The notes below the pieces were generated by a model. The model was not told the DNA's origin. It did not search any database and saw only the letters and a program-made list of their open reading frames with translations. Position numbers and translations under genes: made by a program. A DNA stretch of 24,586 nt. Source: a virus (taxonomy: Duplodnaviria; Heunggongvirae; Uroviricota; Caudoviricetes). The stretch lies in IMG/VR virus record IMGVR_UViG_2939142107_000008. One strand, given 5' to 3'. Positions 781-23,218 of this stretch are shown piece after piece (positions within the stretch are counted from its first letter, which is position 1; each line of letters begins with the position of its first letter).

Positions 781-1040
781 AACAAATTTTCCAGTTGACA
801 ATACCAAAAATAATTAATGGGGACTAGGTTAAATGACGCAGTGGAACAAACTCACCAGAGAAGAAAATTAATGGTATTAATGTTCAATGTGTTCATTACT
901 GTAACCTAGCCCCTACTAATTTATTCACTATATTGCTGAGTATGTCCGCATCTGGCACATAGCAGCCCTAGAGATAGGAGCACACAGTCATAGATGGTCG
1001 GTGGGAGGTAGTGAAAATCCTCTCATACAATAAATACGTA

Positions 1041-1130
1041 AAATCGATAACGGCAAGAGACCTTTCAATACTCGCACTATCGGAAGTTAACCAACCTGCC
1101 ACAGCACGTTCTCGCATACACGTGTCTGCG
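1041..1130. repeat. Copy A of ~90-bp imperfect direct repeat (partner at 3298..3388)
   Basis: aaatcgataacggc...cgcactatcg...gcatacacgtgtctgcg aligns colinearly with 3298..3388 at roughly three-quarters identity by eye; lies in the intergenic region 3' of the ATPase/RloB operon. Confidence 0.6.
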
Positions 1131-1391: not shown

Positions 1392-1925
1392 TTAAAATAC
1401 GGTGAATACATCACACAGGTCCGATAAAACTTCTCGACAAACATGCCTATGATCGCTGAGCACAGAGTTTATATGCTGAAGTGTTATATACTCTTCATAC
1501 CATTCTTGTGTTACAACATTTTTCAAATTATAGAGCCTGTGAAATGACTCTTTTGCCTCCTGCGAATTAACAAATTGTTGATTATGCCCCATTAACCTCA
1601 TTAAAAACCCCTCCAAACAAAATGGTGAGGATTGAATGATTTGTATGTCTCTATTTCTAGCAGCAGATAGAGCATCAGTAGGTATTGCAAGGTCTGAGTC
1701 AATAAAAACAACTCTTTTATCAAAACTACCAGCATGGTTTATAGCAGCCATTATAGCTGATTTCGGTCCTCCACCGCCGGCATCATCTAACCTAACACTA
1801 AACCCTGCAGTCCTAGTTGTTAAGAGTCGTTTTAAACAATCAGCAAATCTTTTATCAGTAATTCCTTCGCACATCAAAAGCTTAGTTCGTTCAACTCCAC
1901 GCTTTACACGTCTGGGCTTCATCAT
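1392..1925 (-). CDS. RloB/Toprim-like small protein (177 aa), putative nuclease partner of upstream ATPase
   Basis: N-terminal LLMCEGITDKRF resembles the CEGxxTE motif I recall for RloB-family proteins; later VVFIDSD gives a Toprim-like E...DxD arrangement; start ATGATG overlaps stop of the ATPase gene (1922..1925), implying an operon. Confidence 0.5.
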   Translation of the reverse strand: MMKPRRVKRGVERTKLLMCEGITDKRFADCLKRLLTTRTAGFSVRLDDAGGGGPKSAIMAAINHAGSFDKRVVFIDSDLAIPTDALSAARNRDIQIIQSSPFCLEGFLMRLMGHNQQFVNSQEAKESFHRLYNLKNVVTQEWYEEYITLQHINSVLSDHRHVCREVLSDLCDVFTVF

Positions 1926-3196
1926 AAGTCTGGTACTCCTCCAAAAGCACCAGCTAAATATTTAGCCGCAATATTATCGTCGACTCGCGCCTCACTGGAT
2001 GGAAAATCATCAAGTCGATAACATTCACTTCTATTGAATTTTTTCTCAGTAATCAACACACGGTACTTACCCAAATAATTTATCAATTCGGGTTTATGAC
2101 AAGTAAAAATTAACTGTGCATGTAACGGGTTTGTTTCTTTACTGATAAACAACTCTAATATAGGTTTAACCATATGTGGGTGCAAATCATCACCAAGTTC
2201 ATCAATAAAGCATGCTGTTCCTTTTTTCAGACATTGCATAATATTATGCAATCTGATAAATGCACTTTGTGTTCCAGCAGATTCGAATGCAAAGGGTAAC
2301 TCAAACTTGGAACCATCTTCTTTTTCATGAATACCATTTATAATATAATAAACATCCTTCTCACCGTTTATATCAACTTTCTCTTCTTTTTCTATAGTTA
2401 TATCATCTAAACCTAAATCCCATTTGCGTAAAATATTTTTTACACTTTTAAAGGCTACTGGATCTTTATATAAATCCTCCGCTGTCGCACCTAAATCTCC
2501 ATAATCATAGCTATACCTTCCCATAGCATTTACATTAGTAGTACTGCTCATTTTTTCGGCTATATCTATAGCCAAAGGAACACCTACACGGCGAGCTGCA
2601 GAAATTATACTTGTATTAGCAGGAGTTCTCTTACCCTCTAAAAGACCTAAAGGAAAAAGTTCTGCTTTTTCAACATAATCATATTTAATTGTTTTTAACA
2701 GTTCTTCAACTTCTTGATGACTAAAATCATCACTACAATTATTTAACTGTTTCTCATAATTTTCTTTATCCAACTTCCTTTTAAAAACATAGATATTTTT
2801 ATTTTTCTCATTTCTTACATACAATTCTTCTTTAATGACAAAATGGTCGCAGGCCGTAACAACATATGTGTATACTTTTCCATCTAAAACAAAACATATT
2901 TTAATCATACCTGGTTTTGTAAAAGGCCGATTAATGTTTAAATACAGATAATCAGTTACTTTTGCTGGTATAGACCAAAAAAACCAACTCAAGAAAGACA
3001 TTGGTTTAAGGAGTGTTGTCTTACCGGAGGCGTTCGCCCCCATGATAGCAGTAATCAGATTGACCTTGTGTCCATCTACATCTACCCACAGTTCTTTTTT
3101 CTTATCTTTAGCTGTAGTAGTTAGGTCTACGAACCCACCTTCATCTTCAAAGCTACCGATATTCTTAATCTCATACCAAAGTATAGCGTTAGCCAT
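1922..3196 (-). CDS. ABC-type ATPase (AAA_15/AAA_21-like, 424 aa), OLD/AbiLi/PARIS-AriA-like
   Basis: Walker A GANASGKTT near N-terminus; distal FESAGTQSAF, Walker B-like ACFIDELGDD and downstream H (FTCHKPE) consistent with split ABC ATPase fold; RBS agagggg upstream of ATG; AT-rich. Confidence 0.6.
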   Translation of the reverse strand: MANAILWYEIKNIGSFEDEGGFVDLTTTAKDKKKELWVDVDGHKVNLITAIMGANASGKTTLLKPMSFLSWFFWSIPAKVTDYLYLNINRPFTKPGMIKICFVLDGKVYTYVVTACDHFVIKEELYVRNEKNKNIYVFKRKLDKENYEKQLNNCSDDFSHQEVEELLKTIKYDYVEKAELFPLGLLEGKRTPANTSIISAARRVGVPLAIDIAEKMSSTTNVNAMGRYSYDYGDLGATAEDLYKDPVAFKSVKNILRKWDLGLDDITIEKEEKVDINGEKDVYYIINGIHEKEDGSKFELPFAFESAGTQSAFIRLHNIMQCLKKGTACFIDELGDDLHPHMVKPILELFISKETNPLHAQLIFTCHKPELINYLGKYRVLITEKKFNRSECYRLDDFPSSEARVDDNIAAKYLAGAFGGVPDL

Positions 3197-3297: not shown

Positions 3298-3388
3298 AAA
3301 TCGATAACGGCCGGAAATCATTCAATTCCCGCACTATCGAACGTTCACCAGCCAACCGCAAAACGTTATTGCATACAACGTTTCTGCG
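3298..3388. repeat. Copy B of ~90-bp imperfect direct repeat (partner at 1041..1130)
   Basis: Same motif order as copy A (aaatcgataacggc / cgcactatcg / gcatacaacgtttctgcg); located between tail-fibre stop and ATPase start. Confidence 0.6.
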
Positions 3389-3586
3389 GCATAATCCCAA
3401 TGATTACTCCCTGACAGGATTTGCAGGCCACTCAATATCAGGTGCAGTTGATGTATCAACACGGTTCAGCAACACCCGATACTTTTTCCAGGCTTCCAGC
3501 AACAAGGTTTCTTTCTCCGTTGCGATCTCCAGCTCAACAACAGTCTGAACGTACCGGGAACAGCCTCCTTCAGAGCTTGAAGGATA

Positions 3587-6154
3587 TCAATGTTCGCTTC
3601 CTGTTAACTGCCGGACAAGTGCAACCAGTTCGCTTACCTGATTTTCCAGAGTGCTGATCCGGGTGTCTGCTGTTGCCAGATTTTCACGTAGCGTTGTGTT
3701 TTCCTCTTCCAGCGCGGTAACGCGATCATCTGTTTCACGGGCGACCTGAACAAGTAAACCCGTCACGGCGGCGTAGTCAACATTAAGATAGCGCGTTTCT
3801 TCGCGTAGCTCGTTGCCGTCAACGGTCGGGCCTTGCAACTCTTCACCGTAATGAGTAAACGATCCCACAGCTTCTGGTATCGCCTCCATTACTTCCTGTG
3901 CAATAACGCCAGCATAAGGCATCCCGTTTTCCCTGAGCGTGTAGGTGTATCCGTTCATTTTACGGATTGCTTTCGTCGCGTCGCTGATAACGAGAATATC
4001 GTCTTTAAGGTCGCGGTCTGATGACTGATTCAGCGTTGTGCAATTAATAGCGCCATTTACATCAAACAACTGGCCTGCTGACGTTTTTTGCGCATAAAAC
4101 AGATACGCAGCAGACGTGCCAACCTCAAAAACGTTTTGTCGAGTACTGGAACCCCACACCCTGATACCAACTGGTAGTTCTGAATTACCTGAATTAAGTA
4201 AAGCAAAACGATTGCCAGTCCCTGTTTGTTTTCTAATTACTAAATCGGCAGTTGAGTTAACCTCATCTTTGTTGATGGTTAGCGCCTGTGCTGTAGCACC
4301 GTTGACAGTACCGCTTAGTAGTTGCACCGCGCCATCATCGCCATTTAACAGCACTTGAGCGCTGCTTCTGTGGTTTTTAAGGCACAACATTTTTCCCGTG
4401 TTTTTCGATGTACCTACTGACCACGCCGAATTGGTTCCAGTGCTATCAACACCGCGCACAGCACAATTCATACTACTGTAATCTGACGTACTCCCCAGCA
4501 CATCAACACGCCCGCCGCCTAATTTTGATGGAGTCGTCGAGGTTAACGACCTGACGGTTACATCCTGATTCCATCCTGAAACAACTACCTGACTCCACTC
4601 CGTCCAACTTCCATTGACAACAAAGCGAACGTATATGCGTTTTGTGTCGCTGCCAATCAGCGTTTGCATGATCGCATAATCTGAACCCGTAGTTTTACGA
4701 GTAGATTCTACACGTAGCAAAAAGTTACCGCTTACGCCGTCAGGCTTATTGGTAATATATGCACCACCTGCGACAGTTTTGCATTGATAGTATTTAACAG
4801 ATCCAGCCACTGTATTAGCAATGATCAAGTCGTTTAAATCAATAGTCTTGTTGTCAATGGTTTCCGGCTCGATAGATCCCGCCATACCTGCGTTAAATGT
4901 GGCAAGGTCAGAAAAGGTTGTTTTACCGCCTACCGTCACCCCGCTATCGAGTTTTGCTTGTGTGATTACTTTGCTGTTTTTTGTGTGGTCAGAATAACTA
5001 CCAAAATACAAATCACCGTCACCAGCTATACCCAGGTATTTTTGATCAACATCATCAACCTTAAACCCAATGGACAAGTTTTTAATTGTGTTGTTGCTCG
5101 TTAAAACCAAAGGCGTATGCTGAGATCCTTTGATGCTTACCGTAGTGTTATCGGAACTGGTGCTTGTGTTTGCAAATTCTGCGGTGGCTGCGCTGATTTT
5201 GTAAGTTATTTTTAGATTGCGGGCCTCAACCCTCCCGTCGTGGCGAACAATAAAATCACCACTTGATTCACCTTTTGTGTTTTTCGCCCTGATGTGGATT
5301 TCGCCAAGTGATTCGTTGTTTTCAGGCGACCAAACAACGCCGCGCTCGCTTCCGTCGTTGTTCATGAACCACAGATGAGCGGTTCCTTTTGCTGATTTTA
5401 GCCTGATAGATGGCGTTTCTTTCAATATATCAAGATCACCAGACATAACATCGCCGGATTTTTTCACCTGCGCATCGTTAGTTACGTTGCCAAGTCCAAC
5501 ATCCGATTTCGACGGCTTGTTTGCCGAGCCGTATAGCTCATTGATGCTAAAAGTCCCGTTGTTAAGCCGGGCATCGTTGCCGGCATAGATCTTAATCTTC
5601 GCGGTTGAGTAGTCGATATTGATCGCTGACCACGTATCGCCGCACCGCGAGAATATACCAGAACCGTGGCTATAAATGGTCGCCGTGCTTCCGGTCGGCC
5701 TATCACCGCGCCAGAAATGACCACCTTTGTCACGCAGAGCTTTTAAGATCTCTACATCGCTCATCTTGCCGTTTGTTGATATCCCGCTACCGCCAAGACC
5801 GAAAGCGCCTGTAAGCATAGCATTAGAAAGACCCAAATCTGCTTTAGTCGGCTTGTTTAACTGGTCGTAAATCCTTACAACGGGGCTTTCAACATATCCA
5901 GAAGGCGCGGCGGTTTGCTTAACAAATCCGTCTGGAATGTATAATTCCGTGCGTGCCGTCTGCGCCAGTACCGCAACCTTCAGGGGTATCCCTTTCACCT
6001 GGTTATCTCCCGCAACGGTATTCCCGGCAACCTGCCGGGTGGCAACCGAGACCGCTTTCTGTGCCACACGGTTTATCGCCCATGCGCTGGCCTGTGGCAC
6101 CATACGGGTATCAAGGCTGTTCAGATTGCGGATGGCATTCTCAAGCCCCTTCAT
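3587..6154 (-). CDS. Phage tail fibre/tail spike (855 aa) with C-terminal intramolecular-chaperone (peptidase S74-like) autoproteolytic domain
   Basis: Fibre-repeat-like segment (LGNVTNDAQVKKSGDVMSGDLDI); C-terminus SDRDLKDDILV...GYTYTL...GVIAQEVMEAIPEAV...YLNVDYAAVTGLLVQ matches the S-x4-K dyad and conserved blocks of self-cleaving C-terminal chaperone domains of endosialidase-type fibres; GAGG RBS. Confidence 0.8.
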   Translation of the reverse strand: MKGLENAIRNLNSLDTRMVPQASAWAINRVAQKAVSVATRQVAGNTVAGDNQVKGIPLKVAVLAQTARTELYIPDGFVKQTAAPSGYVESPVVRIYDQLNKPTKADLGLSNAMLTGAFGLGGSGISTNGKMSDVEILKALRDKGGHFWRGDRPTGSTATIYSHGSGIFSRCGDTWSAINIDYSTAKIKIYAGNDARLNNGTFSINELYGSANKPSKSDVGLGNVTNDAQVKKSGDVMSGDLDILKETPSIRLKSAKGTAHLWFMNNDGSERGVVWSPENNESLGEIHIRAKNTKGESSGDFIVRHDGRVEARNLKITYKISAATAEFANTSTSSDNTTVSIKGSQHTPLVLTSNNTIKNLSIGFKVDDVDQKYLGIAGDGDLYFGSYSDHTKNSKVITQAKLDSGVTVGGKTTFSDLATFNAGMAGSIEPETIDNKTIDLNDLIIANTVAGSVKYYQCKTVAGGAYITNKPDGVSGNFLLRVESTRKTTGSDYAIMQTLIGSDTKRIYVRFVVNGSWTEWSQVVVSGWNQDVTVRSLTSTTPSKLGGGRVDVLGSTSDYSSMNCAVRGVDSTGTNSAWSVGTSKNTGKMLCLKNHRSSAQVLLNGDDGAVQLLSGTVNGATAQALTINKDEVNSTADLVIRKQTGTGNRFALLNSGNSELPVGIRVWGSSTRQNVFEVGTSAAYLFYAQKTSAGQLFDVNGAINCTTLNQSSDRDLKDDILVISDATKAIRKMNGYTYTLRENGMPYAGVIAQEVMEAIPEAVGSFTHYGEELQGPTVDGNELREETRYLNVDYAAVTGLLVQVARETDDRVTALEEENTTLRENLATADTRISTLENQVSELVALVRQLTGSEH

Positions 6155-6165
6155 CCCACACCTCT

Positions 6166-6441
6166 TTACTCAATAAAGATCATTGGCTTACCGTTAAAAC
6201 GTTCATGCCGTGTGACCGTCCATTGTTGTCCGTCATAAACAACGCGATCCCCGCGCCGTGGGCGGTATCCCGAAGAAAACACCACCAGAGAGACCGCAGG
6301 TCCGGACAGAGCATTCAGCTCTGCCAGTGTTTCGCCCGGGATCACAGCCATATCGACATCATTAATCGAGGCTGTCTTTCCCATCTTTCTGACCGTGATC
6401 GCATCCATACGCGCTGCCAGCCGGGAAAAGGGATCAGACAT
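6166..6441 (-). CDS. Small phage head-completion/head-tail joining-like protein (91 aa), hypothetical
   Basis: Position between head genes and fibre; 8-nt overlap with upstream gene suggests translational coupling; no diagnostic motif. Confidence 0.4.
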   Translation of the reverse strand: MSDPFSRLAARMDAITVRKMGKTASINDVDMAVIPGETLAELNALSGPAVSLVVFSSGYRPRRGDRVVYDGQQWTVTRHERFNGKPMIFIE

Positions 6442-6757
6442 TGAGTTTTACCGGCACTTCTTCTGCACTGGTTCCGGCATCTGCCCAGACAACCCCGACC
6501 AGCGGATCAGAGCCGCTGTTAGTCAGCTGAACTTTTCCGGACTTCAGATAAACCTTCTTACCCGTTTTCATGTCATCCGTTTTCAGTTTAGGCAGGATAA
6601 ACACACCTTCGGTCATGCCGTCGCCTGTTTCACCCTGTGGAATATCGGTCAGCGCCACCGCAAAAACATCACCCACCTGCACCAGATCTCCGCTGCTGAT
6701 GGCTGCACTGGCAACAATCGCCACCGTTTTTCCTTCTTCTACAAAATTCTTTGCCAT
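6434..6757 (-). CDS. Small head-associated protein (107 aa from MAKNF start), hypothetical
   Basis: Start chosen at internal ATG preceded by GGAG (tgcggagacagttATG); directly downstream of capsid gene. Confidence 0.4.
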   Translation of the reverse strand: MAKNFVEEGKTVAIVASAAISSGDLVQVGDVFAVALTDIPQGETGDGMTEGVFILPKLKTDDMKTGKKVYLKSGKVQLTNSGSDPLVGVVWADAGTSAEEVPVKLNV

Positions 6758-6770
6758 AACTGTCTCCGCA

Positions 6771-6820
6771 CAGCCCCGTTCAGGGGCTGATTTCAGGTAC
6801 AAAAAAAGCCCTTACGGGCC
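6771..6820 (-). terminator. Hairpin plus T-tract after capsid gene and GC-rich leader hairpin before next gene
   Basis: Minus-strand reading gcccgtaagggc followed by T7, then 7-bp GC stem cagcccc/ggggctg just 5' of the RBS; the first stem is only 4 bp so termination is probably partial. Confidence 0.35.
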
Positions 6821-6843
6821 ATCAGAGTTGTTGTCTGCGACGT

Positions 6844-8988
6844 TTACGCCGTACATTTCACCAGACCGCGGTGATCAACTGGCGCGACACCGGCGTCAAT
6901 ACGCACTTTCGTTGTCACGCCATCCACACTGAAGCCCTCCATCTGATCAATATATGGCGTATCCACACCGTTGAGATAAGCCACTTCAATCGTATCGGAG
7001 CCTTTTGACGCAGCCAGGTAGAAGGTGGTCTGGCTGTTATCATCAAGACGAGGCTCTGCAATAACGGTCGCAAAATCTTTCACCGGGTTAATAATACCGG
7101 CGTTAATGTCAGCCCCCTTGACACTTGAGGAGCGAATGACCTGGTTAGCAACAGACTCCATCGCCGTCGGTACCAGTACGAACGCAGGACGAATATTCAG
7201 ATGACGCTCCCCCTCTTTCTGAACGCGCATCAACTGGCGGGCTTTATCCAGCGATGCCACGTCCATTGCAGCGCTCTCCAGTACGTTTGCATGTTTCGCT
7301 TTATCGAACAGACTTACATTATCTGTGGAGATTTTCGGGTTAGACGTCAGAATGGCATAAACCAGATCGGCAATAGTGGATTTCGCCGCACGGCCCAGTT
7401 TCATCGGGACATCGGTCAGCATATTCAGATCATCATTGATAATGGCCTGACGGGTGATACTGAACAGCTCGCCATAGGTCGCCAGTGCAATAGTGGCCTG
7501 TTTATCTCCGGTGGTGACGTATTTATATTCCGCCCCTTCACGCACCTGACGCAGAGCACTGAAGCCCCCCATACCCACACGATGGGCAATTTTAAAATCA
7601 GACAACTGACCTTTCCGCGTCCACTGTTCATAGGTTTCAGGGGCATCTTCCCAGCCCTGCAGAATGGCTTTGTTCGCAACATCCAGCAGAATATTACCGA
7701 AGTCAGACGTACTGTGTGTGAACGCCGCACCGACCATCTGCATCGGGTTATAACCGGAAACCCCAATACCCCGTTCAGTCAGTGACATACGGGCATATTC
7801 ACGCAGGGTCATCCCGTTGTAGACATTATCACGTTCGGTTTTTTCAAATCCGGCACGCGCCATCAGCGCCTGGCGAATCCCGTCCCCCACAAAATTACCG
7901 TTACCGGCATAAATATGAGCCGGGGTATTTTTATTGGATGGCGTGGACTCGCGCCCCATCTCGTTCAACAGCTTTTCACGGGCCTGCTCCAGCGAACATT
8001 CAGGATCGGCAAGACACTGAGCCTGCAGCGTCTGATAACGCCCGCCAAACATGGCAAACAGATCATTAATACCGTTTACACGCGCTTTTTGCTCTGCCAG
8101 TACCTGTGCACGGATGCTGTTTTCATCCACCACGGGTGCTGCTGCCTGCACTGGCGTCCGGGAGGCTTCAGATTCATTATCCTGTACGCGTGGAGCACTG
8201 TTGCGTGGCGGAGTAATCATGTTTCGAATGGATTCCGGCATCTTTTTAAATTCCTCTGTACGTTTTGACTGAATACATGCCATTGCCTTAACGGCTGGCG
8301 TTACCTGATCAGCAAATCCATGTGCCAGACATTCGGCACCGGACATCCAGGTCTCATCCGCCAGCATGGCAGCAATTTCATCGGTGGTTTTCCCGGTTTT
8401 CTGTGCATAAGCGGGTAACAGAACCGCCTCAACTTTATCGAGCAGGTCGGCATAGGTGCGCATGTCCTCCGCATCACCGCCCGTAAAGCCAAATGGTTTA
8501 TGAATCATCATGAAGGTGTTTTCCGGCATAATGACCGGGTTTCCCACCATCGCAATGACCGACGCCATTGACGCCGCCACACCGTCGACATAAACGGTAA
8601 TGGACGCACCATGTGTTTTCAGCGCATTAAAAATGGCGATGCCTTCAAAGACATCGCCACCCACGTTGTAGACGAACGAGTAAAGAGCGCCGCGCGTTGT
8701 TTCCGGTATATCGACTTTGATGTACGGGTTAATTTGTCTGGCAACCGTGGCAAGGTCTTTATTCAGGAGGGCTTTGCATTCTGCTTCGGTATACGTTTTA
8801 CCGAGCATGATGTCTTTTCCGGTGTGTCCGTGACATACAGTCCATACGCCAACGATATCTTTGTATGGTATGTAGCTGACACCTTCCAGGCCATCGTCAC
8901 CACTTGGGCCAGTGATTAACACTGATGCTATAGCAATTGCTCCGCCACCAATAGCAGCAGCAACTGCTTTTCGTAATGATGGAGGCAT
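6844..8988 (-). CDS. Chimeric ORF: SAR-endolysin N-terminal fragment fused in frame to ClpP-like prohead protease and major capsid domain (714 aa)
   Basis: Residues 1 to ~88 ([30 protein letters not shown]...YSFVYNVGG) match my recollection of the phage 21 SAR endolysin, including the SAR helix and the E/D/T catalytic region; from [13 protein letters not shown] onward the sequence is ClpP-like (GxxASMASxIAMxG, MIHKP); C-terminal ~450 aa is capsid-sized and follows the protease as in protease-MCP fusions. Confidence 0.7.
8725..8988 (-). pseudogene. R: Truncated SAR endolysin (5' fragment, C-terminal ~75 aa missing)
   Basis: Endolysin-like sequence stops abruptly at ...YNVGG and continues as ClpP-like sequence; junction coordinate approximate (about aa 88). 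Confidence 0.6.
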
Positions 8989-9203
8989 TATTCACCTCTC
9001 GCAGCCTTGCGCTTATCTTCTTTAATCTTGAAATAAAGGTTTGTCAGGTACGTCAGCAGGCCAAATACCAGACTACCCAGCACACCTATTGCCGCCCACT
9101 GTGAGGGCGTGACTTTATCGAGCAACTGTAAAAACCAGTACCCGGCACTACCTGCTGAGGTGCCATAGGCGACACCCGTTGTTAACTTATCCATGGATTT
9201 CAT
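8988..9203 (-). CDS. S: Pinholin, S21-like class II holin (71 aa) with dual-start MKSM motif
   Basis: [71 protein letters not shown] is near-identical in pattern to the phage 21 S pinholin as I recall it; two TM segments; charged C-terminus; start trimmed from ORF-track 9266 to the MKSM ATG at 9203. Confidence 0.85.
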
Positions 9204-9270
9204 AACCCCACCTCGCAGATGCGGGTGCTGTGTAATGGAAATAAAAAGGCCACCTGACGTGGCCACCAGA

Positions 9271-10323
9271 TTATTTCCCCACCAGCTCGTTTATCTCTTT
9301 CACTGTCTGGTTAAACCGCTCTGACTCAAGCTCAACACCTAAGGCCCGACGCCCCAGCGCCATTGCTGCTTTTATTGTGGAACCGGATCCCATAAAAAAA
9401 TCAGCAACCAGATCACCTGGTCGACTACTGGCATTGATTATTTGCCTGAGCATATCCGCCGGTTTCTCACACGGATGTTTCCCCGGGTAGAACTGAACGG
9501 GTTTATGCATCCAGACATCGGTATAAGGCACGGAGACTGATACGGAGAAATAGCGCCGGAGAGATTTAAACTCATCCAGCAATTCAGAATATTTGCGATT
9601 CAGTGAATCATAAGATGCCACCAGCTGGTGGTGTGGTTGTTCCAGTTGTTGTTCCTGAAACTTCTCTGCCGCTATACGGGAAAACAGTGCCTGTAACTTC
9701 CGATAGTCAGCCTCATTCGGCAACTGCCACTGACTGGCACCAAACCAGTGGGAAACCATATTTTTCTTACCTGTGGCTTCGGCAATTTGTTTTGCCGTTA
9801 CACCCAGTTCGGCACGAGCATCCCTGAAATACGATATCAGCGGTGCCATTATGTGCTGTTTGAGTTCCCTTTCTTTTGCCGCATAGCCGTCACTTTTGCC
9901 GCGATATGGTCCCTGGTAATGTTCAGCAAACAGAACGCGCTCTGTGGCAGGAAAATATGCGCGCAGACTTTCTTTATTACACCCATTCCAACGTCCGGAC
10001 GGCTTCGCCCAGATGATATGGTTAAGCACGTTGAAACGTTCACGCATCATGATCTCAATATCAGATGCCAGGCGATGCCCACAGAACAGGTAAAGGCTTC
10101 CGGCAGGTTTCAACACCCGCCAGAACTGGGCCAGACAGTGGTCCAGCCACTTAAGGTAATCTTCGTCCCCTTTCCACTGATTGTCCCAACCGTTGGGTTT
10201 CACCTTGAAGTAAGGCGGATCGGTAACAATCAGGTCAATGGAATCATCAGGCAGGGACTGAATAAAATGCAGGCAATCAGCGTTGATTAAATCAACACTG
10301 TTTATTTTTACAGTATTTTTCAT
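9271..10323 (-). CDS. DNA methyltransferase, N6-adenine/N4-cytosine class (beta-type, DPPY then FxGxG), phage orphan Dam-like
   Basis: IVTDPPYF (motif IV) in N-terminal region and FFMGSGST (motif I) near C-terminus; no adjacent restriction gene. Confidence 0.8.
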
Positions 10324-10472
10324 GGATCAGTAAGCGTAACTCTGGTAGGCTCACTCTGCTTTTGCGCTAAAGCAGTGGGCCGTGGTTCGCTTGTGACCAG
10401 TAAGCATGAGCGAATGGCTGGCAGGTGCTACCAACACCCACCAGCCGCCCATTTTCACAAATTAAAAGTCCT

Positions 10473-10667
10473 TCATTGCTGAAGGCGTCTGTAACAGCCG
10501 AACTGGTAATCTGCCAGCCCCGCCATAACCAACTGGGTCAGTATTAACTGACAGCGTTCGCGTGAAAGATATGTGTTTTGTGCAATCTCCCCGACTGTTG
10601 CCGGTTCGATGCTTAATTCATTAAAAACAACTTTCGCCGTTTCTGTCATATCTTGCTGTTTTAGCAT
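10473..10667 (-). CDS. Small hypothetical protein (64 aa from MLKQQ start)
   Basis: ORF with AGGAAA RBS before internal ATG; longer ORF-track start at 10691 also possible. Confidence 0.35.
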   Translation of the reverse strand: MLKQQDMTETAKVVFNELSIEPATVGEIAQNTYLSRERCQLILTQLVMAGLADYQFGCYRRLQQ

Positions 10668-10790
10668 GTCTTTTTTCCTTCTGGTTAACATGACATACCA
10701 ATAACTCTTGTCTAAAAAGCCAGCAAGATAAAAAGTCAGTATTCACGACCACCAGCGTGTTTACCGTACTGCACCAGGTTTACAGGTACA

Positions 10791-10815
10791 AAAAAACCCG
10801 CTCGACGGCGGGTTT
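10791..10815. terminator. Bidirectional rho-independent terminator-like hairpin
   Basis: A6-cccgc-tcgacg-gcggg-ttt; on the minus strand the stem is followed by a T6 run; sits at the left border of the AT-rich cargo cassette, upstream of the DUF262 gene. Confidence 0.55.
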
Positions 10816-10915
10816 AAGTTGTGTGGCGAAGTAACCACTCTTAACACAATACAATACTTTTTGCGTACGCGTTATAGTTTTCTTACAATCAACTTTCAAT
10901 TAAAGGAACGAAAAC

Positions 10916-12076
10916 ATGACTACACTCAAAGAACTCAAAGAAGAGCTTGCTCAGATACAAGATGAACACGCTAAGAACAGAAAAAAGGCTGAAATTGCAG
11001 CTTTAACCGCTTCCGCTGACAATGAAATCAGACTCGCTCAGAGAAACATTGGATACAATGTACGTGAGTGGACCGTTGAAGTCATTATTCAAAAGTATGG
11101 TGATAATATTGAAAATGACAAAAACGAGCTTTTTATTCCAGATTATCAACGTGATTACAAGTGGGATACAAAAACAGCCTCTCGCTTTATAGAAAGTATT
11201 CTATTAGACTTTCCAATACCTTACCTTTACATTGCTGATGTATTTAATGAAGACCCTGAATTAGATGGTAGGGTAGAAATCATTGATGGTTCACAACGGA
11301 TACGCTCTATTTATTATTTTTGGAACGATCAATTTGAGTTAAAGGATTTGAAAGAGCTTAAAAGTTTAGAAGGTTTCAAATTTTCAGATCTTTTAGCTAG
11401 CCGCCAAAGAAGATTTTTAAGAGCTTCACTAAGATTTATTGAGTTGAAAGGTGATGTTGAGGAACAACATAGAAGAGATTTATTTGAAAGGATCAACTCA
11501 GGTGTTAAAAGATTAGAAGCGATGGAAGTGAGGCATGGCTCAGATGCTGCTACCTCAATGTTCTATAAAGATGTTGTGACCCCATGCTCAACAAACTCAC
11601 TTTTTTCCCAACTAGCTCCATTATCAGACCGGAAACGGTCGAATGGCGATCATCGTGAGTTAGTTTTGAGATTTTTTGCATATTTAAATGATTTAGAAAA
11701 CTATAAGGGATTTGTCCGTCCCTTTATTGATAATTATTTAAATGAACAAGCAGCAGCTGTGACTACTCAACAAGATGTTGATAATTTTAAACATGATTTT
11801 GAAATGATGCTTGCTTTTGTTGCTACCCATTTCCCTATTGGCTTTAAAAAGACCGCAACAAGTAAAACCACCCCACGAGCCAGATACGAAGCCATTGCCG
11901 TGGGAACTGCACTTGCATTAAAAACTAACCCACAACTCCAGAGTCCAGCCGTACCTGTAGGTGAATGGCTATTTGAAGAGGAATTTGAAACACTTGTTAC
12001 TGCTGATAGTGCAAACAATACCAGCCAGCTAAAAAACAGAATCTTTTACGTTAAAAATAAGTTGTTAGGGATTTAA
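10916..12076 (+). CDS. DUF262 (ParB/Srx-like) domain protein, 386 aa, lacking the DUF1524/HNH nuclease half
   Basis: FIPDYQRDYKW and IIDGSQR correspond to the two signature motifs (QRxxxW and DGQQR) of DUF262 as found in GmrSD/SspE/BrxU N-terminal domains; no His-Me/HNH motif in C-terminal half; AGGA RBS; AT-rich. Confidence 0.7.
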   Translation: MTTLKELKEELAQIQDEHAKNRKKAEIAALTASADNEIRLAQRNIGYNVREWTVEVIIQKYGDNIENDKNELFIPDYQRDYKWDTKTASRFIESILLDFPIPYLYIADVFNEDPELDGRVEIIDGSQRIRSIYYFWNDQFELKDLKELKSLEGFKFSDLLASRQRRFLRASLRFIELKGDVEEQHRRDLFERINSGVKRLEAMEVRHGSDAATSMFYKDVVTPCSTNSLFSQLAPLSDRKRSNGDHRELVLRFFAYLNDLENYKGFVRPFIDNYLNEQAAAVTTQQDVDNFKHDFEMMLAFVATHFPIGFKKTATSKTTPRARYEAIAVGTALALKTNPQLQSPAVPVGEWLFEEEFETLVTADSANNTSQLKNRIFYVKNKLLGI

Positions 12077-12078
12077 AA

Positions 12079-12768
12079 ATGAGTCTAATTGATTTACGAG
12101 ATGAATATGAAGAAAGAGCAAGAGACATTATGGAACTGCTTTCTCTTGCATCATCTATAGAGATTCATACTCAGCAGTTAGATCCGCAAGCGCATCAAGA
12201 TGAAATAGAATCTAATATCCTAAGGGTAAATATTTTAAAATCATCCGTTCATATGATGCTATATAATCAAGTTGAAAATACTGCCAGAGGTTGCATCGAG
12301 TCAATTTATGATCATTTACAAGATAATGAGGTGAATTACGCATCACTCAGGGAGAAGCTTCAAGTAAATATATTACATAGAATTGTTTCAGATAATGAAA
12401 CAGGGCAATCCCTTTATAAAAAGATAGGCACTGACATTTCCAAAAGAATAATTTCAGCCTCATTGAATATTCGTAAAGAATTCAATGGTAATGTTTGCAA
12501 GCCTGTATTACACAAAATAACGCAGGCTTACGGAATAACTATCGCAAACTCACCTGAATGTAGAAATGGTATTGACTTAGACTTGCTTAAGGATATCAGA
12601 AACGAACTCGCGCATGGAAGTACTAGCTTCTCTAAAAAGGGGCAAATTGACCCCTTAGAAGAAGTTAAGTCTAGAGCAGAGAGAGTTGATCTATATCTTC
12701 GTTTATTAATAAACTCAACTGAAGATTATATTATCTCTAACGGATATTTATCCCCTCAACATGCCTAA
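12079..12768 (+). CDS. HEPN-like protein (229 aa), putative RNase/effector partner of DUF262 protein
   Basis: RNELAH near C-terminus fits the HEPN Rx4-6H motif; gene starts 3 nt after DUF262 stop (operon); 3' end overlaps convergent MTase by about 32 nt. Confidence 0.5.
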   Translation: MSLIDLRDEYEERARDIMELLSLASSIEIHTQQLDPQAHQDEIESNILRVNILKSSVHMMLYNQVENTARGCIESIYDHLQDNEVNYASLREKLQVNILHRIVSDNETGQSLYKKIGTDISKRIISASLNIRKEFNGNVCKPVLHKITQAYGITIANSPECRNGIDLDLLKDIRNELAHGSTSFSKKGQIDPLEEVKSRAERVDLYLRLLINSTEDYIISNGYLSPQHA

Positions 12769-13777
12769 CAAACGTTCTCCCTATTACTTGGCCAATTATA
12801 GGGGGAACAGCATTACCAATCATCGTTCCTAACTTTTGGAATGAAAAAGGCGTATTTTTTCCAATAAATTTATAATCCATAGGAAAAGATTGTAAAATAG
12901 CAGCTTCACGCAAAGTTATTGCTCTATTTTGCTCAGGATGTCCGAATCGCCCATTACCATATCCATAACATTGGGTAGTTATTGTAGGACTAGTATCGTC
13001 CCAAACCATCCGTCCATAAACACTTTTATAGGTAGCACCTGAATGCTTTTTATGGCAATCCGCTCTAATTTCTTCAGGCCAATCATCCCACGTACCACCT
13101 GGTAAAGAGTGCAAGATTCGTTTAAGGTTAATATCCCTTAATTTAGGCGAACGATGCAATGGATCACTTTCGAGTTTCTCCCCTGCACCTATTTTTGGCA
13201 ACTGACCAATAGCATCCTTTACTGTAACTTTACGGCTTACTTTTTTTTGATCAAGGCTGATTGGCCCCAATATGGACCCAATTAGAATTAATCTACGTCT
13301 ATTTTGAGGCAAGCCATACTCGGAACATTTTACAACGTCGTACCACAGATGATACCCAAGAGTCTTTAATACACTAACAAACTCTTCAAAAACCTTATGA
13401 TTTCTAAGTTGAGGAACATTTTCCATAGTCACAAGCTCTGGCATGACATCACTTACAATCCTCTGAAACTCAGATAAAAGACGCCACTTTGTATCATCTT
13501 TTCTGCTATTTGGATTACGATACTTGGAAAACGGTTGGCAAGGGGCACAGCCTGCAAGTAATCTAATATTTCCTTCCTTGAACATAGCAGACACATCGCT
13601 GGATTGCAGTTCAGTAACTGACTGGTTAATGAACTTCGTTAAGGGATTATTGCTCTCAATAGCGAAACGGCAGGACTCATCAATATCAATGCCATGAGAA
13701 ACTTCAATCCCGGCTTTTTTTAGCCCAAAAGTTAAGCCCCCTGCGCCACAAAAAATGTCTACTGCTTGAATGTTCAC
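12737..13777 (-). CDS. DNA (cytosine-5) methyltransferase (346 aa)
   Basis: Motif I FCGAGG, motif IV GCAPCQPFS (PCQ), motif VI MENVPQL (ENV), motif VIII LPQNRRR; GTG start with GGAG RBS; AT-rich relative to phage core. Confidence 0.85.
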   Translation of the reverse strand: MNIQAVDIFCGAGGLTFGLKKAGIEVSHGIDIDESCRFAIESNNPLTKFINQSVTELQSSDVSAMFKEGNIRLLAGCAPCQPFSKYRNPNSRKDDTKWRLLSEFQRIVSDVMPELVTMENVPQLRNHKVFEEFVSVLKTLGYHLWYDVVKCSEYGLPQNRRRLILIGSILGPISLDQKKVSRKVTVKDAIGQLPKIGAGEKLESDPLHRSPKLRDINLKRILHSLPGGTWDDWPEEIRADCHKKHSGATYKSVYGRMVWDDTSPTITTQCYGYGNGRFGHPEQNRAITLREAAILQSFPMDYKFIGKNTPFSFQKLGTMIGNAVPPIIGQVIGRTFVRHVEGINIR

Positions 13778-13856
13778 AAGATTCTCCGTTACTTTACCCT
13801 GGTATTATATACACATAAAAGTTGGGAAAGTAGAATGATTTTACATAGCACTTAAC
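13778..13856 (-). promoter_or_regulatory. Candidate late promoter (pR'-like) and qut region downstream of Q
   Basis: Perfect TATAAT on minus strand (plus coordinates 13804..13809) in the short Q-to-cargo spacer; -35 is poor, as expected for a Q-dependent promoter; placement by analogy with lambdoid pR'. Confidence 0.35.
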
Positions 13857-14210
13857 TCATTGTATTAAATAAAAAAATGACAAGCATCCATCAATAAACC
13901 CCATAGCTGTTTGCATATCTTTTCGAACTGTTCCGTCTGAACATTTCCGCTTCTTTGCAATTGTACGGAGCGAAATGCCAACAACAAAGTGAGCAATTAT
14001 CAGCTCATACTCTGCCGGCTTGTATTTACGCAACCTAGCGACACAACCGTCTATTATGATGCCCTCATCATCATCGCACTGAATCCGGGACTTTCTGCCA
14101 TGAGGTAAAAGCCGCTTGAAGCCAGCAGCTACCGGTTGCCAGTCCACACCACTGTTTTCTGCAGCAGCCCATGCCCCCCAGCGGTCCAAAACTTCATACA
14201 TATCACGCAT
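13857..14210 (-). CDS. Antitermination protein Q, QuuD-type (about 118 aa)
   Basis: MRDMYEVLDRWGAWAA...AAGFK...CDDDEGIIIDGCVARL...CSDG matches my recollection of DLP12 QuuD (MRDIQMVLERWGAWAA...); start trimmed to the MRD methionine. Confidence 0.7.
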   Translation of the reverse strand: MRDMYEVLDRWGAWAAAENSGVDWQPVAAGFKRLLPHGRKSRIQCDDDEGIIIDGCVARLRKYKPAEYELIIAHFVVGISLRTIAKKRKCSDGTVRKDMQTAMGFIDGCLSFFYLIQ

Positions 14211-14227
14211 CAACTTTCTCCACAAAA

Positions 14228-15223
14228 TCAGGCCAGCACGCCAATTGCCAGCGCACGATCGATAAAACGAAATATCAGCTCCAGCTGGGAGCCATACATC
14301 TCTTCAAATGCCACGGTATCTGCATGCAGCTCGTCGTGATGCTTTCTGCACAAAGGCAACACAAAGAGGTCATGCGCTTTTGTACCCATTCCACCCTGAC
14401 CGTGACCTATCAGGTGGTGGGGATCATCAGCAGGCTTTCCACAACATGCACACGGCTGTGTCTTAACCCAGCGCGTGTACTTTTCATTAACCCAGCGGCG
14501 ACGTTTTGGGCGTAACATAAAAGACTCCGGCGACTCCGGATCCACTTTCAGCGCCAGCACCTTTTTCGCCTTATCCTGGATGATGCTGGTAGCAGGAACC
14601 GAAGGCACAAGGTCACTTTCCCGGGTGACAGACGGCACAACAGGCTTCGGTAATCTCAGTGCCTTACGGGCTGCACTTTCCGGTAAGGCATCCGCCAGGT
14701 CATTACGAATCAGCCACCAGCACAGTTCCGGCATTGTCACAACGTGACTGTCATCAAAACCGAGATCCCGACGCACAACAGACAACACCCAGCGGGCACA
14801 GTTATCCGTTGCCATTGATTCCAGCCGTTCCGTGAACTGATCACGCAGCTGGTTATCGCAGTGCCAGCACAGACGGATTGCACCCGGAGCGTGTCGCATT
14901 GTGGTCATGTTCTCGCTGTGCCAGTCGGAATGAGGCCACTGGCAGCCTTTTTCACGAAGTAACCAGCTTTCAAGACATTCCACGCCACCAGCACGACGGA
15001 TCACTGCCTCATTGCGGAACACGGCCCAAACGGCAGGATCATCCGCCAGCGGTTGTGACGCCGCGGGAACGGCACCACTGGCGAAAGATGAATAATGCTC
15101 CGGCTCAGGCTCCAGCAGGACACGCCCCTGCATAAACAGGGGCATCAGCTCTGAACCGGGCCTGAACAATACGATCCCCATACGCGGGGCAATTTCAGGG
15201 GTCAGTAGTGCTCTCACGGTCAC
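14228..15223 (-). CDS. DUF968-family phage protein (YdfU-like) with C-terminal HNH-like Cys/His motif
   Basis: C-terminal PCACCGKPADDPHHLIGHG...CRKHHDELH; position between replication genes and Q is typical for this family in lambdoid prophages. Confidence 0.6.
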   Translation of the reverse strand: MTVRALLTPEIAPRMGIVLFRPGSELMPLFMQGRVLLEPEPEHYSSFASGAVPAASQPLADDPAVWAVFRNEAVIRRAGGVECLESWLLREKGCQWPHSDWHSENMTTMRHAPGAIRLCWHCDNQLRDQFTERLESMATDNCARWVLSVVRRDLGFDDSHVVTMPELCWWLIRNDLADALPESAARKALRLPKPVVPSVTRESDLVPSVPATSIIQDKAKKVLALKVDPESPESFMLRPKRRRWVNEKYTRWVKTQPCACCGKPADDPHHLIGHGQGGMGTKAHDLFVLPLCRKHHDELHADTVAFEEMYGSQLELIFRFIDRALAIGVLA

Positions 15224-15224
15224 C

Positions 15225-15578
15225 TCAATGAACGGTATCGAGCAGCTTTAACAGCTCAGGGACCAGTTTTTCCGCCTGGCGAGTCAGGCACAAAATCACC
15301 CGGGAATCGTTAGTGCCGACATAGAAATTGCGCACAGGTCTGGTTTCACGAACTGGTTGTGGTTCCGGCTCCTGCGCTCTCTCAGTCAGGCGCGGGAAAT
15401 GTCTGCGTGTATCCCCTTCACAACGGTGAGCCACACGCCCACTCTGACGTAACTTGCTTGCTGACTGCAGAACGCGCTGCCGTGAGTAACCTGCAAAAGC
15501 ATCCGCAATGTCTCCGGAAGTACAGCCCGGATGGGCTTCAATGAATTTCTGAACTTCATTCAAAAGACTCATGCTCAC
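15225..15578 (-). CDS. Hypothetical phage protein (117 aa)
   Basis: ORF translationally coupled to replication gene (ATGA overlap at 15575..15578). Confidence 0.4.
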   Translation of the reverse strand: MSMSLLNEVQKFIEAHPGCTSGDIADAFAGYSRQRVLQSASKLRQSGRVAHRCEGDTRRHFPRLTERAQEPEPQPVRETRPVRNFYVGTNDSRVILCLTRQAEKLVPELLKLLDTVH

Positions 15579-16516
15579 CCCCTGAATCCTGCCGGGATCT
15601 GGCTGTAGTCCACGCTGTCGTAACTGGATTTGAAATACGGGTCTTCGCGTTTTTCTGTGTATGTGCTGATGGACGGCGATAAGCGCAGGGAAAGCTCATC
15701 CCATTTTTCCCGCAGCTTCGACGGGCTGAGCACGTTACGGCACCAGAACGGATCGCGGCTGACGCGGCTGTACATCTCGCAGATTTGTTTGTGAGTACGA
15801 CCATCCTGCACACACATCAGGCGAATTTCGTTTGCCCAGGCTGTCCAGTTCGGTTCTTTGGGACGAACCACCTCGCCGTCACATTCGGCGGCCTGCTCGT
15901 ACAGGGCAATGATTTTTTTCCAGAGCCACTGTGCGCAGGTCAAATCATCCTGCGTTCCCCACTGGCGCTTTTTAGGGCTGAATACAACCGCATCAGGATG
16001 GCGAGTTAAAAAATCCTGTTCAGCCGTCTGCGTGTCCGGTTGCGAAGCGTCCGGACGAGAAGGTTTTTTATCTGACGGATCATGTTTTGATTTTACTGAC
16101 GGATCCCCGCCAGATTCTGACGGGTGAAAACCCGCTTTTTTGCCAGATTTCGACGCATCAAATTTTGACGTGTCAGATTTTGATGCGTCAGATTTTGACG
16201 GGTCAGAATCTGACAGTTGAGAAAATGCCGCTGCCTGAAGCTTCGCAACGTTAAGCTGATAAACATTCGACGCATTGCGGTTACCCTGGCGACGCGCCTT
16301 ACGCGTTAACCAGCCTTCTGCTTCCAGCCGTGCGATAGCCGTTCTGACGGTACTCATCCCCGCGCCAATCTGACGGGCAATAGTTTCAATTGATGGCCAG
16401 CACACACCTTCGTCATTACTGAAATCAGCCAGGCGGGCCATAATTGCCACGCTGGATAATTTCATGCCTGACGCAGCGCAACCATCCCATACATAGCCGG
16501 TTAATTTAGTGCTCAT
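15575..16516 (-). CDS. Replication initiation protein, O-like (N-terminal wHTH initiator domain, low-complexity linker, C-terminal domain)
   Basis: N-terminal LSSVAIMARLADFSNDEGVCWPSIETIARQIGAGMSTVRTAIARLEAEGWL is a typical phage replication-initiator HTH; central SKSDASKSDTSKFDASKSG linker is encoded by the iteron array. Confidence 0.7.
   Translation of the reverse strand: MSTKLTGYVWDGCAASGMKLSSVAIMARLADFSNDEGVCWPSIETIARQIGAGMSTVRTAIARLEAEGWLTRKARRQGNRNASNVYQLNVAKLQAAAFSQLSDSDPSKSDASKSDTSKFDASKSGKKAGFHPSESGGDPSVKSKHDPSDKKPSRPDASQPDTQTAEQDFLTRHPDAVVFSPKKRQWGTQDDLTCAQWLWKKIIALYEQAAECDGEVVRPKEPNWTAWANEIRLMCVQDGRTHKQICEMYSRVSRDPFWCRNVLSPSKLREKWDELSLRLSPSISTYTEKREDPYFKSSYDSVDYSQIPAGFRG
16088..16219. 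repeat. Iteron array (about 7 copies of a 15-bp unit TCAGATTTTGACGnn) inside rep gene: putative phage origin
   Basis: ccagattctgacggg / ccagatttcgacgca / tcaaattttgacgtg / tcagattttgatgcg / tcagattttgacggg / tcagaatctgacagt in tandem; each unit is a partial palindrome (TCAGA...TCTGA). Confidence 0.65.
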
Positions 16517-16864
16517 GACCGACCTCTATTTCCCTGAATTTACGACGAAACTGTTCGAGCGGGCTGAAGCACTCATGCTCATAGCCTTCACGGAGGTAGA
16601 TAACCCGTTGTGTTTCCGGCTCCCAACGAATGACTCTGACGGGCACTCCGTAGTGATCTTTGAACCAGCGGTTAACTTGTCGCAAAGGACTGTCTCCTTC
16701 TGCCGGTTGAAATCCCCCACAGCCCACTCAGCAAAGCTGTGGGTTACAATTTCCCTGTCACCTGGTACATTTACTGCATAGCAATACTCCACCTTCGCTT
16801 TTCCACCCGGTACAGGAAGCGCAATCAGTTGCGAGCGACGGTAGTGTGTTGTTAAACTGTTCAT
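16506..16864 (-). pseudogene. Small early gene apparently split by a frameshift at a G5/C5 run (overlapping ORFs 16526..16864 and 16506..16727)
   Basis: Upstream ORF has a coupled ATGA start at 16864 but a Ser-rich junk-like C-terminus; downstream ORF has a plausible C-terminus overlapping rep start but begins only at GTG; frames differ by one nucleotide around ccccc at 16714..16718. Confidence 0.35.
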
Positions 16865-17418
16865 GCGTTAGTTTCTCCACAACCAGAAGCAATCGACGCC
16901 ACGACGCCCGGAGCTGCACACTCGCGGGCGTCATTACTTTCTGAAACGCAAAAAATTTTGTAGACAAGTGCTGCATGCTCCTGCAGCTTCGAAATTGAGA
17001 GGTACAGCTCGTCGTTAATTGCTGTCTTCTCATGCGGTTCCACTACACCGTCTTCGATTGCCGAACGAATCTGTTTTGAATAACTGCCGATCTGTTCAAT
17101 GACTTCCAGTAAACGCTGGTTAATATCGGCATTGTCCACATCCTCGACGTCAGGAAGAGACACAAAGACGCCATTTGCAGACTGCGCCACAGCGTCGGCA
17201 ATGAAGTGAGTGCCACCAGCACGTTGTAAAATCATTGCCCATCCCAGCGGGAAAATCTGATCGCCATCGGCACGAAGGCGGTTAAATAATGCGTTCTCTG
17301 TTACATCCAGCCACTCAGCAGCTTCAGCGTAACCCCCCGGCAACGCCGCGATAGTTTTTCTGACAGCTTTCACGTACCACTCAGGCTGTTTTTCCACTTT
17401 CCAGTGATGATTACCCAC
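16861..17418 (-). CDS. Regulatory protein at the CII position (CII/YdaT-like, 185 aa), hypothetical
   Basis: Immediately downstream of cro with overlapping start/stop; assignment by position only. Confidence 0.4.
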
Positions 17419-17671
17419 GGCTTACCTCCTGTTCCTGTGGTTTAAACCCATTCTGGTTTTGGCTAGATTGAAAACGTGCCGGATAAAGAATCTGCATTTC
17501 GCTGATTTCACCCTTAAAAAAATTGGCCAGACGTTCTGCAAGATCGATAGATGGAATTTGTTCCAGTCTTTCAATACGACTCAGCGTCGCTGGATTGACC
17601 TGAACGCCAGCAGCAACATGCTGCAAAGTAAATCCGTGCGCCTTACGCACATTCCGTAATGGTGATTGCAT
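17411..17671 (-). CDS. cro: Cro-like HTH (XRE-family) regulator
   Basis: GFTLQHVAAGVQVNPATLSRIE helix-turn-helix; GGAGG RBS; divergent from repressor gene. Confidence 0.7.
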   Translation of the reverse strand: MQSPLRNVRKAHGFTLQHVAAGVQVNPATLSRIERLEQIPSIDLAERLANFFKGEISEMQILYPARFQSSQNQNGFKPQEQEVSRG

Positions 17672-17768
17672 ATAACCTCCACATATTGCGTGATAAGCAT
17701 ATTATTTCACGCAAATATTTTGCGCAAGTTGATTTGCTTAACGCGCAATAAAGAAATGTAATAAACGC
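17672..17768. promoter_or_regulatory. Immunity-region operator/promoter (OR-like) between cro and cI
   Basis: Repeated GCGCAA/TTGCGC half-sites (attgcgtgataa, tcacgcaaata, ttttgcgcaagt, taacgcgcaata) including the palindrome TTGCGCAA, in the 97-bp divergent intergenic region. Confidence 0.6.
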
Positions 17769-18461
17769 ATGAACATAGGAAACCGAGTCAGACAACTTCG
17801 CCAGGCGAAGAACATGAAAATCGCCGATCTCGCTGAAGCAATAGGAGTGGATGCGGCGAATATCTCACGCCTGGAAACAGGTAAGCAGAAACAATTCACT
17901 GAACAAGCCCTGAGTAATATTGCCAGGAGCTTAGGTGTTGATATTGCTGATCTCTTTACCTCAGACGTCAAAAGTAATACTGTATGTAAAAACAGTATTA
18001 GTGAGGATGTTGCGCAGGTGAAGGATGTATTCCGTATTGAAATGCTGGATGTCAGTGCCAGTGCGGGAAATGGCCTTATCCAGGGCGGTGATGTCATTGA
18101 TGTGATTCATGCCATTGAATACAGAACTGATAATGCTGTATCGATGTTTGGCGGACGGCCAGCCAATCACATTAAAGTTATCAACGTTCGTGGGGACAGT
18201 ATGTGTCCAACCATTGAGCCAGGAGATCTCATCTTCGTTGATGTCAGTATCAATCAGTTTGATGGAGATGGTATCTATGTATTTGGTTTTGATGATAAAA
18301 TTTATGTCAAACGACTGCAAATGATACCTGACAAACTACTGGTGATTTCTGATAACCAGATTTACCGTGAATGGGGAATTACCAGCGAAAATGAACACCG
18401 GTTTATGGTCTTTGGAAAGGTCTTAATCAGCCAGTCACAAACCCTTAAGCGACACAATTAA
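17769..18461 (+). CDS. cI: CI-like repressor: N-terminal HTH_XRE plus C-terminal S24 (LexA-like) autopeptidase
   Basis: IADLAEAIGVDAANISRLETGK HTH; C-terminal GDSMCPTIEPGDLIFVD and VKRL (Ser-Lys dyad context); essentially no RBS, consistent with a leaderless pRM-type transcript. Confidence 0.85.
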   Translation: MNIGNRVRQLRQAKNMKIADLAEAIGVDAANISRLETGKQKQFTEQALSNIARSLGVDIADLFTSDVKSNTVCKNSISEDVAQVKDVFRIEMLDVSASAGNGLIQGGDVIDVIHAIEYRTDNAVSMFGGRPANHIKVINVRGDSMCPTIEPGDLIFVDVSINQFDGDGIYVFGFDDKIYVKRLQMIPDKLLVISDNQIYREWGITSENEHRFMVFGKVLISQSQTLKRHN

Positions 18462-18481
18462 CCCTTACCTCCTCATCAATT

Positions 18482-18506
18482 AGCCACCCAAAGGTGGCTT
18501 TTCATT
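18482..18506 (+). terminator. Rho-independent terminator after repressor gene
   Basis: agccacc-caaa-ggtggct followed by tttt. Confidence 0.6.
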
Positions 18507-23128: not shown

Positions 23129-23142
23129 CTTATTGATTTAAA

Positions 23143-23218
23143 TGGTGCCGATAATAGGAGTCGAACCTACGACCTTCGCATTACGAATGCGCTGCTCTAC
23201 CAACTGAGCTATATCGGC
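23143..23218 (-). tRNA. thrW: tRNA-Thr (anticodon CGT)
   Basis: Reverse complement reads GCCGATATAGCTCAGTTGGTAGAGCAGCGCATTCGTAATGCGAAGGTCGTAGGTTCGACTCCTATTATCGGCACCA; 7-bp acceptor stem GCCGATA/TATCGGC, anticodon loop TTCGTAA, GTTCGA T-loop, CCA end. Confidence 0.9.

Follow-up and report, generated by a model that had tools for sequence, protein, structure and literature searches.

The DNA analysed here (the window; 24,586 nucleotides) is, as a whole, a lambdoid prophage integrated at thrW/proA. It begins 574 bp inside the left end of the prophage. The two prophage ends are defined by a 64-bp direct repeat, the att core, which is found at window 23125..23188 and at 1001..1064 of the corresponding locus of E. 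coli FDAARGOS_433 (L001); this repeat overlaps thrW (tRNA-Thr), the neighbour of proA, in the region of its 3' end. On the minus strand, the ORF list places a 714-aa ORF at window 6844..8988, which runs through without interruption. Together with Pfam searches and two blocks of 100% identity to L001, this list identifies the ORF as a chimera in which residues 1-110 of RrrD are joined to residues 72-675 of a ClpP-like protease/major capsid protein. Three Pfam domains follow one another along the translation: Phage_lysozyme at residues 34-124 (E 5.4e-24), CLP_protease at residues 104-230 (E 9.3e-30), and Phage_capsid_4 at residues 416-711 (E 2.1e-54). The first-pass annotation had described just such an unbroken frame, endolysin-like at first, then ClpP-like, and then capsid-sized, and the ORF list and Pfam matches bear it out.

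The rrrD-derived segment (codons 1-110; 8658..8988, minus strand) is 100% identical to L001 rrrD. It is followed by a truncated ClpP-like prohead protease segment (residues 111-230; 8299..8657, minus strand), matching positions 51-179 of the CLP_protease profile, and by an intact HK97-type major capsid domain (residues 416-711; 6856..7743, minus strand). The same division emerged when 5,426 complete E. coli genomes were searched with the ORF by megablast: nucleotides 1-331 matched rrrD and nucleotides 327-2145 matched genes named [quoted passage not shown]. Upstream lies an intact S21-type pinholin gene (8988..9203, minus strand; Pfam Phage_holin_2_1, E 3.6e-35), with essD annotated at the matching L001 site. 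The start codon of the chimera overlaps the pinholin stop codon, as had been proposed, the ATG and the stop having base 8988 in common; the same overlap is annotated in L001, where rrrD occupies 17862..18359 and essD 18359..18574. Judged by its domains, the chimera is a complete member of neither the SAR endolysin family nor the protease/capsid family.

The N-terminal part of the chimera can be assigned by descent to the SAR endolysins RrrD and R21. Its first 110 residues are near-identical to RrrD (DLP12) and phage 21 R (4ZPU, 3HDE, 3HDF; PF00959), including the SAR domain and the catalytic triad. They match the solved structures of E. coli RrrD (4ZPU; E 6e-68) and of the phage 21 lysozyme (3HDE; E 3.5e-67) with only 2-3 substitutions, and the match ends at ...YNVG. 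Residues 1-30 are identical to both proteins. The Gly/Ala-rich, weakly hydrophobic N-terminal segment that constitutes a SAR domain (as defined in PMC9239132) is retained at about residues 1-27, and the translation reads E35-X8-D44-X5-T50, in keeping with the E-X8-D-X5-T catalytic motif of SAR endolysins (PMC9239132). Like the RrrD and phage 21 R genes, the chimera is coupled to an S21-type pinholin gene through an overlapping stop and start; unlike them, it carries a foreign C-terminal extension of 604 residues. The lysozyme fold is incomplete, for the rrrD-derived sequence ends at residue 110 of 165 and the C-terminal 55 residues of RrrD are absent. The Phage_lysozyme score falls accordingly, from 154.7 bits for native RrrD (profile 3-125) to 85.4 bits for the truncated match in the chimera. 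Judged against 4ZPU and 3HDE, identification of the N-terminal part as a SAR endolysin had been correct in the first-pass annotation, whereas its estimated length of about 88 residues was a miscount and too short.

The remainder of the chimera, residues 111-714, is assigned by sequence to the protease-capsid fusion proteins of the mEp460 type. It is 100% identical to residues 72-675 of WP_077695248.1, and chimera residues 110-260 show 100% protein identity to mEp460, Ayreon, and Tritos. In mEp460-type lambdoid phages (mEp460, Ayreon, Tritos, cdtI; WP_077695248.1), a native fusion of protease and capsid protein is a normal feature of the head module, so this fusion is shared with them. Unlike the mEp460-type protein, the chimera has lost 71 N-terminal residues and with them the beginning of the ClpP fold (profile 16-50); the CLP_protease match covers profile 51-179 with 104.3 bits, against 16-179 with 125.6 bits for the native protein. 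The catalytic Ser and His are kept, with S140 and H163 aligning with S97 and H122 of E. coli ClpP. In a BLASTP comparison with E. coli ClpP, the RrrD segment at chimera residues 89-111 (nucleotides about 8656..8724) aligns by chance with the ClpP strand that it replaces (...DIYLYINSPGG); because of this chance alignment, the CLP_protease envelope begins at residue 104, ahead of the true junction. Further downstream, the Phage_capsid_4 score equals that of the native protein, leaving the C-terminal HK97-type capsid domain complete. The head module of mEp460-type phages also places terminase and portal ahead of the protease, and both genes are present in relatives; neither precedes the chimera.

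The switch from one parental protein to the other, which the first-pass annotation had read as ...YNVGG|DVFEG..., is found at exactly that point, between residues 110 and 111. BLAST block overlap and a three-way sequence display place the deletion junction (deletion B) at window 8658..8662, where five nucleotides of microhomology, GGGTG on the minus strand, occur at both parental sites. The pentamer shared by the breakpoint ends spans a Gly codon, which agrees with the earlier suggestion of microhomology at the GG junction. Across their breakpoints, the parental sequences read ...AACGTGGGTG|CTGGT in rrrD and ...TCACCGGGTG|GCGAT in the protease gene, and the window allele is identified by the sequence TCGTCTACAACGTGGGTGGCGATGTCTTTGAAGGCATC. 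Microhomology of at least 5 nt would be expected by chance in about 0.005 (~0.5%) of random joins. The junction is clean, with only this short microhomology and without foreign sequence, as befits a chimera made by deletion. Relative to L001, deletion B corresponds to 16174..18033 (1,860 bp) and takes the last 55 rrrD codons, portal in its entirety, and protease/capsid codons 1-71. The starts of the two parental genes lie 1,977 nt apart in L001; since they share one reading frame and the length of the deletion is divisible by three, the ORF stays open, and it does so by chance.

Comparison with close relatives argues for a recent and stepwise origin. The window corresponds to L001 1575..7554, 13490..16173, and 18029..33957 at 99.97-100% identity (BLAST blocks), and it is 7,797 bp shorter than the L001 span, which is the sum of its two deletions (1,860 and 5,937 bp). 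Only two base differences from FDAARGOS_433 were found over the shared 24.6 kb, at window 2119 and 5700 (C in the window and T in FDAARGOS_433 at each), so the deletions must be recent. In FDAARGOS_433, N196, IH5, and 2024CK-00474, whose DNA is 99-100% identical, rrrD and the ClpP-like protease/capsid gene are separate and intact; intact relatives that encode the fused architecture natively, the observation that would have overturned a deletion origin, are thus not what these genomes contain. The gene order in the intact relative, strain 2024CK-00474 (L002), is essD, rrrD, Rz, two small ORFs, a DUF1441 small terminase gene, the large terminase gene, a small W-like gene, portal, and ClpP/MCP. 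Measured against this strain, the window lacks the 3' end of rrrD, Rz (with embedded Rz1), both terminase subunits, the W-like gene, portal, and 71 protease codons, about 5.9 kb in total between rrrD and protease. This gap coincides with the losses predicted from the sequence at the outset, namely the endolysin 3' end, Rz/Rz1, terminase, portal, and the protease N-terminus.

The part of that prediction in need of revision is its single deletion: a clean deletion it is, though probably not one event. FDAARGOS_433, the nearest relative, is itself without Rz through the W-like gene: 4,057 bp have been deleted between sites sharing 6 nt of microhomology, and 26 bp now separate rrrD from portal. 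Eight complete genomes of this prophage lineage, diverse in their downstream states, have the resulting rrrD|portal junction. Among these, N196 still has the tape measure gene and the rest of the tail; since a genome with the Rz-to-W deletion retains a complete tail module, this deletion appears to be the oldest shared event. Loss in two steps, the Rz-to-W deletion followed by the 1,860-bp deletion B, is the simplest and most likely history. It is favoured because the flanks of the window are 100% identical to those of the Rz-to-W deletion strains and an early-region deletion is held in common with them. That scar lies at window 15261/15262, amounts to ~1.5 kb relative to 2024CK-00474 with 2-nt microhomology, takes a LexA-family regulator, RusA, and a KilA-N protein, and is common to the window, FDAARGOS_433, and other sister strains. 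The order of the two late deletions follows from parsimony, the window alone giving no proof of it.

An origin in one step, by a single deletion of ~5.9 kb running from rrrD codon 111 to protease codon 71 of an intact prophage, would give the identical sequence, and the intact order essD-rrrD-Rz-...-TerL-W-portal-ClpP/MCP that it demands does exist in 2024CK-00474. The Rz-to-W junction, moreover, falls within the segment missing from the window and for that reason is not directly visible there. Such an origin is nevertheless improbable: against the full identity to the Rz-to-W strains, the flanks of the window are only 98.7-99.98% identical to the intact relative; the window has the 1.5-kb early deletion (LexA-like/RusA/KilA-N) of the Rz-to-W strains; and the Rz-to-W deletion, with its 8 genomes, is the most widely shared state of the lineage.

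The window carries a second chimera of the same construction. This 855-aa ORF (3587..6154, minus strand), recognized from BLAST blocks and from Pfam matches to Minor_tail_Z (1-54) and Peptidase_S74, joins residues 1-58 of the minor tail protein gpZ to ~798 C-terminal residues of an S74 (pyocin-knob) tail-fibre protein. Its junction, at window 5979/5980, is that of deletion A, a 5,937-bp in-frame deletion with 2-nt microhomology, which removes U, V, G, T, the tail-tip gene, lom, and the fibre N-terminus. Sister strains have lost other parts of the late region: 6,035 bp in AR437 (7-nt microhomology), 7,081 bp in 23GD35035 (3 nt), and 8,874 bp in 455 and 639 (2 nt), the last cutting into essD, while two deletions in each of N73, N137, and N169 spare a 124-bp gpZ island. 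In total, at least six late-region deletion alleles occur among about a dozen near-identical genomes (N73, AR437, 23GD35035, 455; L001, L007, L008), and the microhomologies at the sister deletions (N73, AR437, 23GD35035, 455) range from 2 to 7 nt. The gpZ island of N73 (L003 9631..9754, equivalent to L001 13385..13508) ends 17-18 bp from the gpZ breakpoint of the window (L001 13490/13491); this proximity may reflect a local deletion hot spot or coincidence. Lysis genes are touched only by the window allele (rrrD) and by the 455/639 allele (essD), and all alleles retain the cargo genes, namely an AbiL-like pair, a DUF262/GmrSD_N and HEPN pair, and two DNA methyltransferase genes, as well as Q, an S24-type repressor, and the integrase.

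In-frame fusion is not a general property of these deletions, since the gene-gene joins of N73, AR437, and 23GD35035 are out of frame and meet a stop within 3-13 codons. That neither deletion of the window shifts the frame (chance 1/9) could point to selection against polarity; the allele series, with in-frame outcomes in 2/5, gives this no support. Selection for in-frame fusions was rejected on the same count, which amounts to no enrichment.

Cryptic prophages of E. coli such as DLP12, Qin, Rac, and e14 carry deletion scars, and both deletional decay and domestication of prophages are familiar processes. The alleles described here resemble the scars of such defective prophages in their clean late-gene losses, 2-7-nt microhomologies, retention of cargo, repressor, and integrase, and occurrence as several independent alleles. 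No difference in kind separates the window allele from them; it merely stays in frame as one long ORF.

Searches for the same architecture elsewhere returned nothing. No genome among the 5,426 complete E. coli genomes covered more than 85% of the ORF by megablast, and tblastn with 260 junction-spanning amino acids against 50,697 phage records yielded no contiguous lysozyme and ClpP match at ≥80% coverage. The exact 714-aa protein is not on record according to an exact-protein look-up, the junction 38-mer was not found in exact scans of genome_contigs and metagenome_contigs, and the exact junction was not found in a gene-position index. A native lysozyme-ClpP-capsid architecture was rejected, the arrangement occurring nowhere else in the collections searched. 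On this evidence, the ORF adds one more example to a familiar class, the scars that microhomology-mediated deletion leaves in defective prophages.

What remains of the late region is limited. According to the ORF list and annotation, no terminase, portal, spanin, or tail-shaft gene is present anywhere in the window, and the statement of the first-pass annotation that the prophage would be unable to lyse or package fits this gene content because none of these genes remains. Downstream of the chimera, a cement/DUF2190 protein and a Gifsy-2-family head-tail protein survive (6166..6802, minus strand; Pfam Phage_cement_2 and Gifsy-2, L001 annotation). A terminator-like hairpin, GGCCCGTAAGGGCT followed by T7, lies at window 6807..6820 (minus strand), 24 nt past the chimera stop and before the cement gene; it is presumably native to the head operon. 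A promoter/terminator scan of window 3300..14400 found promoter-like sites below the shuffle mean. The late antiterminator gene Q (13857..14225, minus strand; Pfam Phage_antitermQ, E 5.4e-46) is present and is intact in the L001 annotation, and any transcript covering essD and the chimera is expected to be driven by Q.

Two groups of putative defence genes accompany these remnants. At the far end of the prophage, adjoining a tail-fibre-assembly remnant, a low-GC AbiL-like pair (1392..3196, minus strand) comprises an AbiLi-like AAA_21 ATPase (PADLOC, E 2.5e-66) and a small AbiLii-like protein (E 1.5e-09). A second pair, on the plus strand at 10916..12768, consists of a DUF262/GmrSD_N protein (PADLOC NsnA 5.9e-45, PD-T4-2_A 4.6e-27) and an HEPN_MAE_28990 nuclease; situated between Q and the lysis cassette, it is antisense to the late transcription unit in which it is embedded, and N6/N4 and C5 DNA methyltransferase genes flank it (9271..10323 and 12737..13777, both minus strand). 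GC content in this region is 0.33-0.41, and the same arrangement occurs in the intact relative.

Taken together, we consider it probable (about 0.85) that the chimera is a dead remnant, a by-product of ordinary prophage decay through two deletions. The starting point would have been a lambdoid prophage at thrW, beside proA, whose head module was of the mEp460 type. A first deletion of 4,057 bp would have taken Rz/Rz1, both terminase subunits, and the W-like gene; in the lineage of the window, illegitimate recombination between two GGGTG pentamers would then have removed 1,860 bp. In the product, the lysozyme half keeps the SAR anchor and the E-D-T triad with about one third of the fold gone, the protease half keeps Ser and His with the N-terminal part of the ClpP fold gone, and the capsid domain is left without a portal, terminase, or tail partner.

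The protein would be made only once induction had set off Q-dependent late transcription, and its translation would be coupled to that of the intact pinholin. Both halves are inferred to be non-functional, although some residual lysozyme activity is conceivable, as the N-terminal lobe keeps all three catalytic residues. The main consequence would be loss of function, with neither peptidoglycan lysis nor particles. Once triggered, a pinholin is lethal on its own (PMC9239132). Induction would probably kill the cell, with no clearing and nothing released, and it is plausible that the pinholin and the truncated SAR protein are harmful when expressed. A more speculative view, to which we give little credence, is that the terminase-less thrW prophage is a dead-end element that still kills on induction, such that late deletions are selected rather than neutral and the SAR-anchored chimera is tolerated or mildly useful.

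An assembly or sequencing artefact, in which a mis-join would have brought together rrrD and protease/capsid genes that really are separate, with portal, in the genome, might be suspected from a junction unique among all collections searched. This explanation was rejected as very improbable: an overlap of 5 nt, or of 2 nt at the other join, is much too small to lead an assembler astray; clean deletions of the same kind, with short microhomologies, are seen here in finished genomes of sister strains; and the sequence on both sides of the join is otherwise perfect. Least credible of all is a functional neo-fusion, whose SAR signal-anchor would bring a protease/capsid passenger to the membrane or periplasm for selected toxicity, exclusion, or vesicle/particle formation, since against its 714 open codons, its retained SAR domain, lysozyme triad, ClpP Ser/His, and complete capsid domain, and its translational coupling to an intact pinholin stand the truncation of both enzymatic folds, the chance frequency of in-frame outcomes over the allele series, and an allele found once and undiverged from its parental genes, which leaves no time for selection to have acted.

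As a remnant of prophage decay, the ORF should be flagged as a chimeric pseudogene and given neither parental name, endolysin or capsid protein, and the prophage, with no terminase, portal, spanin, or tail, should count as defective. The chimera has little importance beyond annotation, being a scar of decay and not a new kind of protein. The series of deletions in near-identical strains provides a small, clean example of fast erosion of the late region with the defence and methylase cargo kept, and the deletion alleles could act as strain-typing markers within this E. coli clone.
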